From assembly GCF_965641715.1 (NCBI RefSeq), contig NZ_OZ282453.1: a DNA stretch of 64,000 nucleotides. One strand, given 5' to 3'. A program made the position numbers and the translations under genes. Within the stretch, counting starts at the first letter, position 1, and every line of letters starts with the position of its first letter. The stretch is from Escherichia coli (GTDB lineage Bacteria; Pseudomonadota; Gammaproteobacteria; Enterobacterales; Enterobacteriaceae). The notes under the pieces are model-generated. The model worked only from the letters and a program-made list of their open reading frames with translations. It was not told the DNA's origin and did not search any database. This document shows positions 32,780 to 33,230 of this stretch, piece after piece.

Positions 32780-33230
32780 GCCTGATGCGACGCTGGCGCG
32801 TCTTATCAGGCCTACGCAGGGGTAGAACCGTAGGTTGGATAAGGCGTTCACGCCGCATCCGACAGCCGTTGCCTGATGCGACGCTGGCGCGTCTTATCAG
32901 GCCTACGCAGGGGTAGAACCGTAGGTCGGATAAGGCGTTTACGCCGCATCCGACAGCCGTTGCCTGATGCGACGCTGGCGCGTCTTATCAGGCCTACGCA
33001 GGGGTAGAGCCGTAGGTCGGATAAGGCGTTTACGCCGCATCCGACAGCCGTTGCCTGATGCGACGCTGGTGCGTCTTATCAGGCCTACGCAGGGGTAGAA
33101 CCGTAGGTCGGATAAGGCGTTCACGCCGCATCCGACAGCCGTTGCCTGATGCGACGCTGGTGCGTCTTATCAGGCCTACGCAGGGGTAGAACTGTAGGTC
33201 GGATAAGGCGTTTACGCCGCATCCGACACG
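32780..33230. repeat. Tandem array of five 91-bp REP/BIME-type units between dedD and cvpA
   Basis: Unit GCCTGATGCGACGCTGG(C/T)GCGTCTTATCAGGCCTACG...CCGTAGGTCGGATAAGGCGTT(T/C)ACGCCGCATCCGACAG starts at 32780, 32871, 32962, 33053 and 33144. Confidence 0.85.

Follow-up and report, generated by a model that had tools for sequence, protein, structure and literature searches.

The intergenic region between dedD and cvpA in the window, by which we mean the whole stretch of 64,000 nucleotides of Escherichia coli DNA that was analysed, carries five tandem units of 91 nt, in each of which short linkers connect a Z2 REP with an inverted Y REP. We assign this array to the BIME-2 class with a probability of about 0.9. 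The kind of element and its copy-number polymorphism are already known, and the only new point is the length of a rare allele.

The genes folC (30850-32118), dedD (ending at 32770), cvpA (33393-33881) and purF (33918-35435) are all found on the plus strand, and their order is that of b2315-b2312 in MG1655. In RefSeq, the flanking genes at homologous loci bear the same names, dedD and cvpA. A position between these two genes had been stated in the original prediction, and the open reading frames (dedD to 32770, cvpA from 33393, both on the plus strand) agree with it. The features of the region are as follows, with the basis of each in parentheses.

32090-32770, plus strand: dedD ORF, listed from an upstream TTG (ORF list)
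32768-32770, plus strand: dedD stop codon TAA (ORF list, sequence, RefSeq dedD in homologous loci)
32778-33228, plus strand: array assigned to BIME-2, 5.0 x 91 nt, Z2 plus inverted Y (Tandem Repeats Finder, unit dissection)
32780-32815, plus strand: Z2 REP of unit 1, with CTAC at its end (hairpin fold; 1 mismatch to the Z2 of REP325)
32871-32906, 32962-32997, 33053-33088 and 33144-33179, plus strand: Z2 REPs of units 2-5 (equivalents of unit 1)
32830-32864, minus strand: Y REP of unit 1, inverted, with GTAG first on the plus strand (hairpin fold, head-motif matches)
32921-32955, 33012-33046, 33103-33137 and 33194-33228, minus strand: Y REPs of units 2-5 (equivalents of unit 1)
32833-32903, 32924-32994, 33015-33085 and 33106-33176, plus strand: four matches to naRNA4 (RF02564), each across a Y/Z2 junction (Rfam)
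33233-33244, plus strand: partial start of an extra unit, TTGCACGATGCC, to be compared with the unit start TTGCCTGATGCG (sequence)
33263-33297, plus strand: terminator-like hairpin and T-run (terminator scan: 12-pair stem at 33263-33292, then TTTATTG)
33321-33336, plus strand: ACGCAAACGTTTTCTT, a box resembling a PurR operator, within the cvpA-purF control region (sequence)
33393-33881, plus strand: cvpA, first gene of the cvpA-purF-ubiX cluster (ORF list, RefSeq annotation)

The stem of the first Z2 REP starts at 32780, leaving a gap of 9 nt (TACGGTTTT) after the dedD stop codon. Downstream of the array, the terminator-like hairpin at 33263-33292 is also present in the RNA fold and is conserved in Salmonella, Citrobacter and other genera. 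The hairpin and its T-run (33263-33297) are likely to form the 3' end of the folC-dedD transcript. As the array follows the dedD stop codon and precedes this hairpin, it is predicted to be part of the dedD 3'UTR in any transcript that reaches the hairpin. The ACGCAAACGTTTTCTT box, which we take to be the PurR operator of the cvpA-purF operon (purF), lies outside the repeat and marks the downstream boundary of the slot. A 19-mer around it, CCTACGCAAACGTTTTCTT, is conserved exactly in at least 120 Enterobacterales species representatives. No annotated CDS was present inside the array in any of the RefSeq homologous loci examined, and the MG1655 RefSeq record lists no repeat feature at dedD-cvpA. 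Each unit contains a 43-aa ORF (MRRWRVLSGLRRGR...) along with antisense ORFs; we regard these as repeat artefacts, as no RefSeq genome annotates a CDS there. Within dedD itself, a tandem repeat of 24 nt x 2 (32413-32460) encodes the Pro/Lys-rich linker of DedD. In some E. coli dedD is 12 nt shorter (651 versus 663 nt), so that the length of the linker is also polymorphic.

The primary structure of the array was then examined in detail. Tandem Repeats Finder reported positions 32778-33228 as a single tandem array with a period of 91, 5.0 copies, 97% matches, 0% indels and a score of 853, and a repeat search of the window gave in-register copies at 91/91/91 spacing with 95-100% identity. Any two of the five units differ by 1-3 substitutions, with 0% indels. 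Each unit is built, in order, of a Z2 REP, a 14-nt linker, an inverted Y REP and a 6-nt linker. The Z2-type REP (GCCTGATGCGACGCTGGCGCGTCTTATCAGGCCTAC, 36 nt) has the general form GCCTGATGCGACGCTGG(C/T)GCGTCTTATCAGGCCTAC, and in all units folds into a hairpin with one conserved mismatch at -21.4 to -22.1 kcal/mol. The inverted Y-type REP (GTAGGTCGGATAAGGCGTTTACGCCGCATCCGACA, 35 nt) has the general form GTAGGTCGGATAAGGCGTT(T/C)ACGCCGCATCCGACA, and its hairpins range from -16.7 to -18.8 kcal/mol. The linker between the tails of the two REPs is GCAGGGGTAGAACC (14 nt), while that between their heads is GCCGTT (6 nt). These results support the claim that first drew attention to the region, namely five near-identical 91-bp units with two inverted REP palindromes each: the period is 91, the copy number 5.0, and the hairpins are in opposite orientation. 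The span of 32780-33230 originally given is likewise sustained, with edges shifted by an immaterial 2 nt.

We took as a REP an extragenic imperfect palindrome of 30-40 nt whose foot carries a conserved GTAG (CTAC on the opposite strand) and whose stem contains a conserved mismatch. All ten elements of the array display a stem, a 1-2-nt mismatch and a second stem, with CTAC (Z2) or GTAG (Y) at the foot. When the whole window was searched for the REP head motif GCCKGATGCGRCG with 1 mismatch allowed, 15 matches were found against 0.61 expected, and ten of them fell inside the array. Unit 5 is followed by TTGCACGATGCC, which resembles the unit start TTGCCTGATGCG, and the array is thus bounded by a quasi-direct repeat.

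BIME-2 elements are defined as tandem arrays of z2 and y REPs whose linkers are short and whose copy number differs from strain to strain (PMC3333891). The array alternates inverse Z2 and Y REPs in multiple tandem copies with short linkers, and its copy number at this one locus varies among strains, as described below. We also tested whether the units are separated by unique spacers, which they are not, and whether the palindromes match the Y/Z2 consensus, which they do. Compared with the BIME-2 family in the classification of Gilson, Bachellier and Hofnung (reviewed by Ton-Hoang et al. 2012, PMC3333891), alternating Z2/Y REPs, short linkers, tandem arrangement, extragenic location and variable copy number are common to both. 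We noticed no essential difference; the linkers GCAGGGGTAGAACC and GCCGTT are specific to this locus and result in the 91-nt period. The original prediction also included a general statement that REP clusters can bind IHF, and this statement is the sole ground for considering the array a BIME-1/RIB-type element whose main role is IHF binding. IHF binding is a property of the long L linker of BIME-1, whereas BIME-2 is the class associated with gyrase (PMC3333891, PMC6379681). In the array the REPs are Z2 and not Z1, and the linkers of 14 and 6 nt contain no L motif. The IHF consensus WATCAANNNNTTR had 3 matches in the 64-kb window, no excess over chance, and none in 32778-33228. Moreover, BIME-1 elements occur as single copies and not in tandem arrays (PMC3333891). 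We therefore give this reading next to no probability, and the IHF part of the statement does not apply here. Since the array is a BIME-2, gyrase rather than IHF would be the relevant DNA-binding partner.

Among individual elements, we compared the array directly with REP325, the published alternating Z2/Y element of 12 PUs (bioRxiv 10.64898/2026.03.23.713779) located between yjdM and yjdN in K-12. Both show the order of Z2 followed by inverted Y along the direction in which the upstream gene is transcribed, and both occupy the 3'UTR of two genes arranged in tandem. The Z2 REPs are 1 nt apart and the Y cores are nearly identical. On the other hand, REP325 has a period of 100 nt and longer linkers, its units are overall 76-79% identical to those of the dedD-cvpA array, and there are 6 of them in K-12. 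The dedD-cvpA array further differs in that it is followed by a terminator-like hairpin and in that the gene downstream is served by a regulated promoter of its own.

In the RNA fold, the array forms ten stable hairpins in a row. The minimum free energy of the RNA from 32771 to 33300 was -281.7 kcal/mol, against -206±7.8 kcal/mol for shuffled sequences (z = -9.6). The four naRNA4 (RF02564) matches on the plus strand scored 77.8-83.3 bits, above the gathering score of 59.5, while those on the minus strand remained below it at 49.5-55.5 bits. A match to Rfam MIR1437 at 33012-33179 (25 bits versus a gathering score of 168) was discarded as noise. Taking into account that a model of chromosome condensation by HU and naRNA4 has been published for REP325 (PMC4550694), we considered whether the array is a cluster of naRNA4-like non-coding RNA genes whose transcripts bind HU and condense the chromosome by bridging REP cruciforms. 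The four junctions above the gathering score, the fact that the better strand is the sense strand of dedD, and the near identity of the REPs to those of REP325, for which the HU model was proposed, all speak for this possibility. On the contrary, the Rfam family in effect models one BIME-2 junction, and consequently any BIME-2 will match it. Judged by sequence, the matches at the array would mark another BIME-2 and indicate kinship rather than function. In addition, the promoter scan revealed no independent promoter in or before the array; no promoter-like site was detected inside it, and the sole promoter-like match (32627-32655) is inside dedD. The model has also been disputed in a 2026 preprint that shares authors with the original work, in which deletion or overexpression of REP325 left the nucleoid volume unchanged and REP-REP contacts were not enriched (bioRxiv 10.64898/2026.03.23.713779). 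We thus consider naRNA4-like genes at this locus quite unlikely, and return to the array as a BIME-2.

Copy number in other strains was examined by BLAST against 5,426 complete E. coli genomes, using two queries, the array with its flanks and a fusion of the flanks from which the array was left out. Copy numbers were deduced from match spans, as query coverage was unusable for this purpose: one unit in the subject aligns to several units in the query. Seventeen homologous loci were dissected directly. The original prediction held that the copy number might differ from reference strains. This is the case, as K-12 harbours one unit (258 nt between dedD and cvpA) and the window five (622 nt), and the comparison with other E. 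coli genomes gave a range of 0-6 units. Regular alleles are separated by exactly 91 nt or by whole multiples of it, as listed here with the length of the intergenic region.

0 units, 167 nt: MMC-J-0078
1 unit, 258 nt: K-12, O103 RM8385
2 units, 349 nt: Res13-Sevr-PER07-33
3 units, 440 nt: O157:H7 Sakai, ST131 strain 4224
4 units, 531 nt: O157 FDAARGOS_293, NU14, O125ac C 236-04A
5 units, 622 nt: the window, TUM13936, A30, O55:H7 CB9615, 100181, D8, ZF8-1
6 units, 713 nt: E. coli ET350

Apart from the number of units, the K-12 allele resembles that of the window, with identical flanks, the same first Z2 and last Y, and the same 9-nt distance from stop codon to REP. Allele frequencies were estimated, rather than counted, from two evenly spaced samples of 59 chromosomes each, which have at least one genome in common; two lists of best matches were used in addition. 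The chromosome rows of the two samples were distributed as follows.

0 units: 2 of 118
Truncated single unit: 3 of 118
1 unit: 80 of 118 (about 68%)
Irregular, about 2 units: 2 of 118
3 units: 14 of 118 (12%)
4 units: 17 of 118 (14%)
5 or more units: 0 of 118

Alleles of five or more units are therefore rare, roughly below 2.5%, with at least seven such genomes among the best matches listed. Five units are an uncommon state, but other genomes share it. Copy number follows lineage: phylogroups A and B1 mostly have 1 unit, most O157:H7 strains 4, and ST131 3. Changes also occur within lineages, as Sakai has 3 units versus 4 in most O157:H7, and O55:H7 CB9615 has 5 versus 4 in USDA5905 and DEC5B.

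Several alleles depart from this regular series. In the 235-nt allele of CUVET19-1993 and HCM-24C-3, there is one unit from which 23 nt between the Z2 and Y tails have been lost, and the two REPs are fused into a new perfect hairpin, CTTATCTGGTACAGATAAG. This looks like an internal deletion mediated by the palindrome. SCU-124 (span 1158) and MS 21-1 (span 1155) are irregular and do not correspond to 996 + 91N; one of the two spans fits a full unit plus a truncated unit of 68 nt.

A further question was whether the five-unit count in the window reflects an assembly artefact, through expansion or mis-joining of a shorter array. The five units amount to 455 nt with 97% identity, which is beyond typical short-read length, and short-read assemblies may thus miscount the array. 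Among the matches listed, the four complete genomes whose flanks are closest to those of the window (99.7%) have 4 units, the next (99.4%) has 2, and no complete genome with identical flanks has 5. Nevertheless, substitutions specific to individual units (TTGGAT in unit 1, GAGCC in unit 3 and AACTG in unit 5) help to anchor an assembly, and arrays of 5, 6 and 7 units are found in complete genomes. The order of units in the window is a mosaic of the unit variants found in the strains with the nearest flanks, and not a simple duplicate of a neighbouring unit. We accordingly regard an artefact as very unlikely.

As copy number changes in exact register, the alleles fit unequal recombination or slippage. 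The most likely route would be unequal recombination in register, or slippage during replication, among units that are nearly identical. Alternatively, copies may be gained or lost through cleavage and strand transfer catalysed by TnpA_REP (RAYT). Cleavage by TnpA_REP at TGCC|TGAT with strand transfer has been demonstrated in vitro and proposed to amplify BIMEs (PMC3333891). As in REPIN/RAYT systems, the REP pairs of the array carry GTAG feet, the form of substrate used by this enzyme, and the site at which TnpA_REP cleaves type I iREPs, TGCC|TGAT (PMC3333891), is matched by the start of the unit, TTGCC|TGAT. Involvement of TnpA_REP in copy change at dedD-cvpA is conjecture. A related observation comes from MMC-J-0078, whose empty-site allele reads TACGGTCTT|GCCCGATGCC, with the junction at the array boundary (33233-33244). 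The join is located exactly at TTGCC|, matching the published type I site of TnpA_REP (TGCC|TGAT). This empty site is also explicable by deletion between the quasi-repeats bounding the array, which agree at 10 of 12 nt.

In a wider survey, one genome per GTDB species was scanned for the PurR-box 19-mer, and the distance from the dedD stop codon to the PurR box was obtained for each locus. The 91-nt BIME-2 was present at the dedD locus in 2 units in each of E. albertii, E. whittamii and a record titled E. coli E69, and in 7.0 units (94% matches) in Escherichia sp. E1V33, extending the range to 0-7 across Escherichia. The occurrence of the same array in E. albertii, E. whittamii and a cryptic Escherichia clade indicates that the element predates E. 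coli. Most simply, the rare 0-unit allele is a secondary deletion. The dedD slot contains only one degenerate REP-like hairpin in Salmonella arizonae, and a single Y-like REP in Citrobacter. Other kinds of repeat were seen in further genera. An unrelated palindromic unit of 59 nt occurs in 7.2 copies (locus positions 1031-1456) between the dedD stop codon and the terminator in Pseudocitrobacter faecalis, and elements of the CCCTCTCCC...GGGAGAGGG type are found in the dedD slot of Enterobacter sp. ENT03, Enterobacter sp. Cy-643 and Lelliottia. The palindromic arrays at this slot across genera look like convergent colonisation of one 3'UTR site. We considered the idea that the slot between the dedD stop codon and the terminator is a recurrent site of array landing and expansion in Enterobacteriaceae, where length could be a heritable stepwise dial and not neutral. 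We hold this to be unlikely. If it were true, the dial would act on how stable the folC-dedD message is, on how much DedD is made, or on how well the PurR-regulated cvpA-purF promoter is insulated.

All statements on function given here for the dedD-cvpA array are drawn by analogy from published work on other BIMEs. REP325 is reported to stabilise yjdM mRNA, to limit read-through into yjdN and to be a partly Rho-dependent attenuator (bioRxiv 10.64898/2026.03.23.713779). By analogy, the hairpins of the array may stop exonucleases that degrade from the 3' end, protecting the folC-dedD message upstream after the terminator hairpin has been breached. They may also bring about partial, partly Rho-dependent attenuation, which together with the terminator would insulate the PurR-controlled cvpA-purF promoter from read-through. 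The effects of REPs depend on context, and terminal REPs do not uniformly lengthen half-lives (bioRxiv 10.64898/2026.03.23.713779). The contribution of the REPs may be small, given the terminator-like hairpin that already lies downstream of the array. As about two thirds of the sampled E. coli have one unit and a few have none, the extra units are probably near neutral.

At the level of DNA, cleavage by gyrase is enriched in BIME-2 elements, mostly at y REPs and independently of transcription, and the cleaved BIMEs that have been named include sucC-sucB and tldD-yhdP (PMC6379681). The Y REPs of the array would, on this precedent, be preferred sites of gyrase cleavage, and a longer array would probably be a stronger gyrase site. 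A further possibility concerns translation. According to the account in PMC12306157 of work by Liang, Rudd & Deutscher (2015), REPs less than 16 nt from a stop codon lower translation. With the stop codon ending at 32770 and the first Z2 stem at 32780, the gap of 9 nt is within the distance given in that account, and the first hairpin may thus interfere with termination of dedD translation. Any allele that has one unit or more, and not just the five-unit allele, would be subject to such an effect.

The significance of the array beyond bookkeeping is small, as descriptions of BIME-2 arrays, and of the differences in their copy number among strains, date back to the 1990s. The dedD-cvpA array is nevertheless a length marker with 91-nt steps that is structured by lineage, and it could serve as a simple locus for PCR typing. 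Recent work argues for a local tuning of 3'UTR behaviour by REPs, and dedD-cvpA offers a natural allelic series of 0-7 units in which dose dependence could be studied.

Some further elements were noted elsewhere in the window. Upstream of folC, at a distance of roughly 9 kb, lies a P2-like prophage segment (19500-23500) that shares 99.7% identity with Xuanwuvirus P884B11 over 4 kb and about 94% with phage P88. Rfam matches in this segment, on the minus strand, correspond to C4 antisense RNA (21377-21464, 83 bits) and isrK RNA (21500-21574, 64 bits). Outside the array, a head-to-head REP pair forming a small BIME was found at 54647-54679, along with single REP-like matches at 12095, 20493 and 59807. 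Near the end of the window, an Rfam match to nuoG RNA was detected on the plus strand at 63940-63982, with 50 bits against a gathering score of 33.
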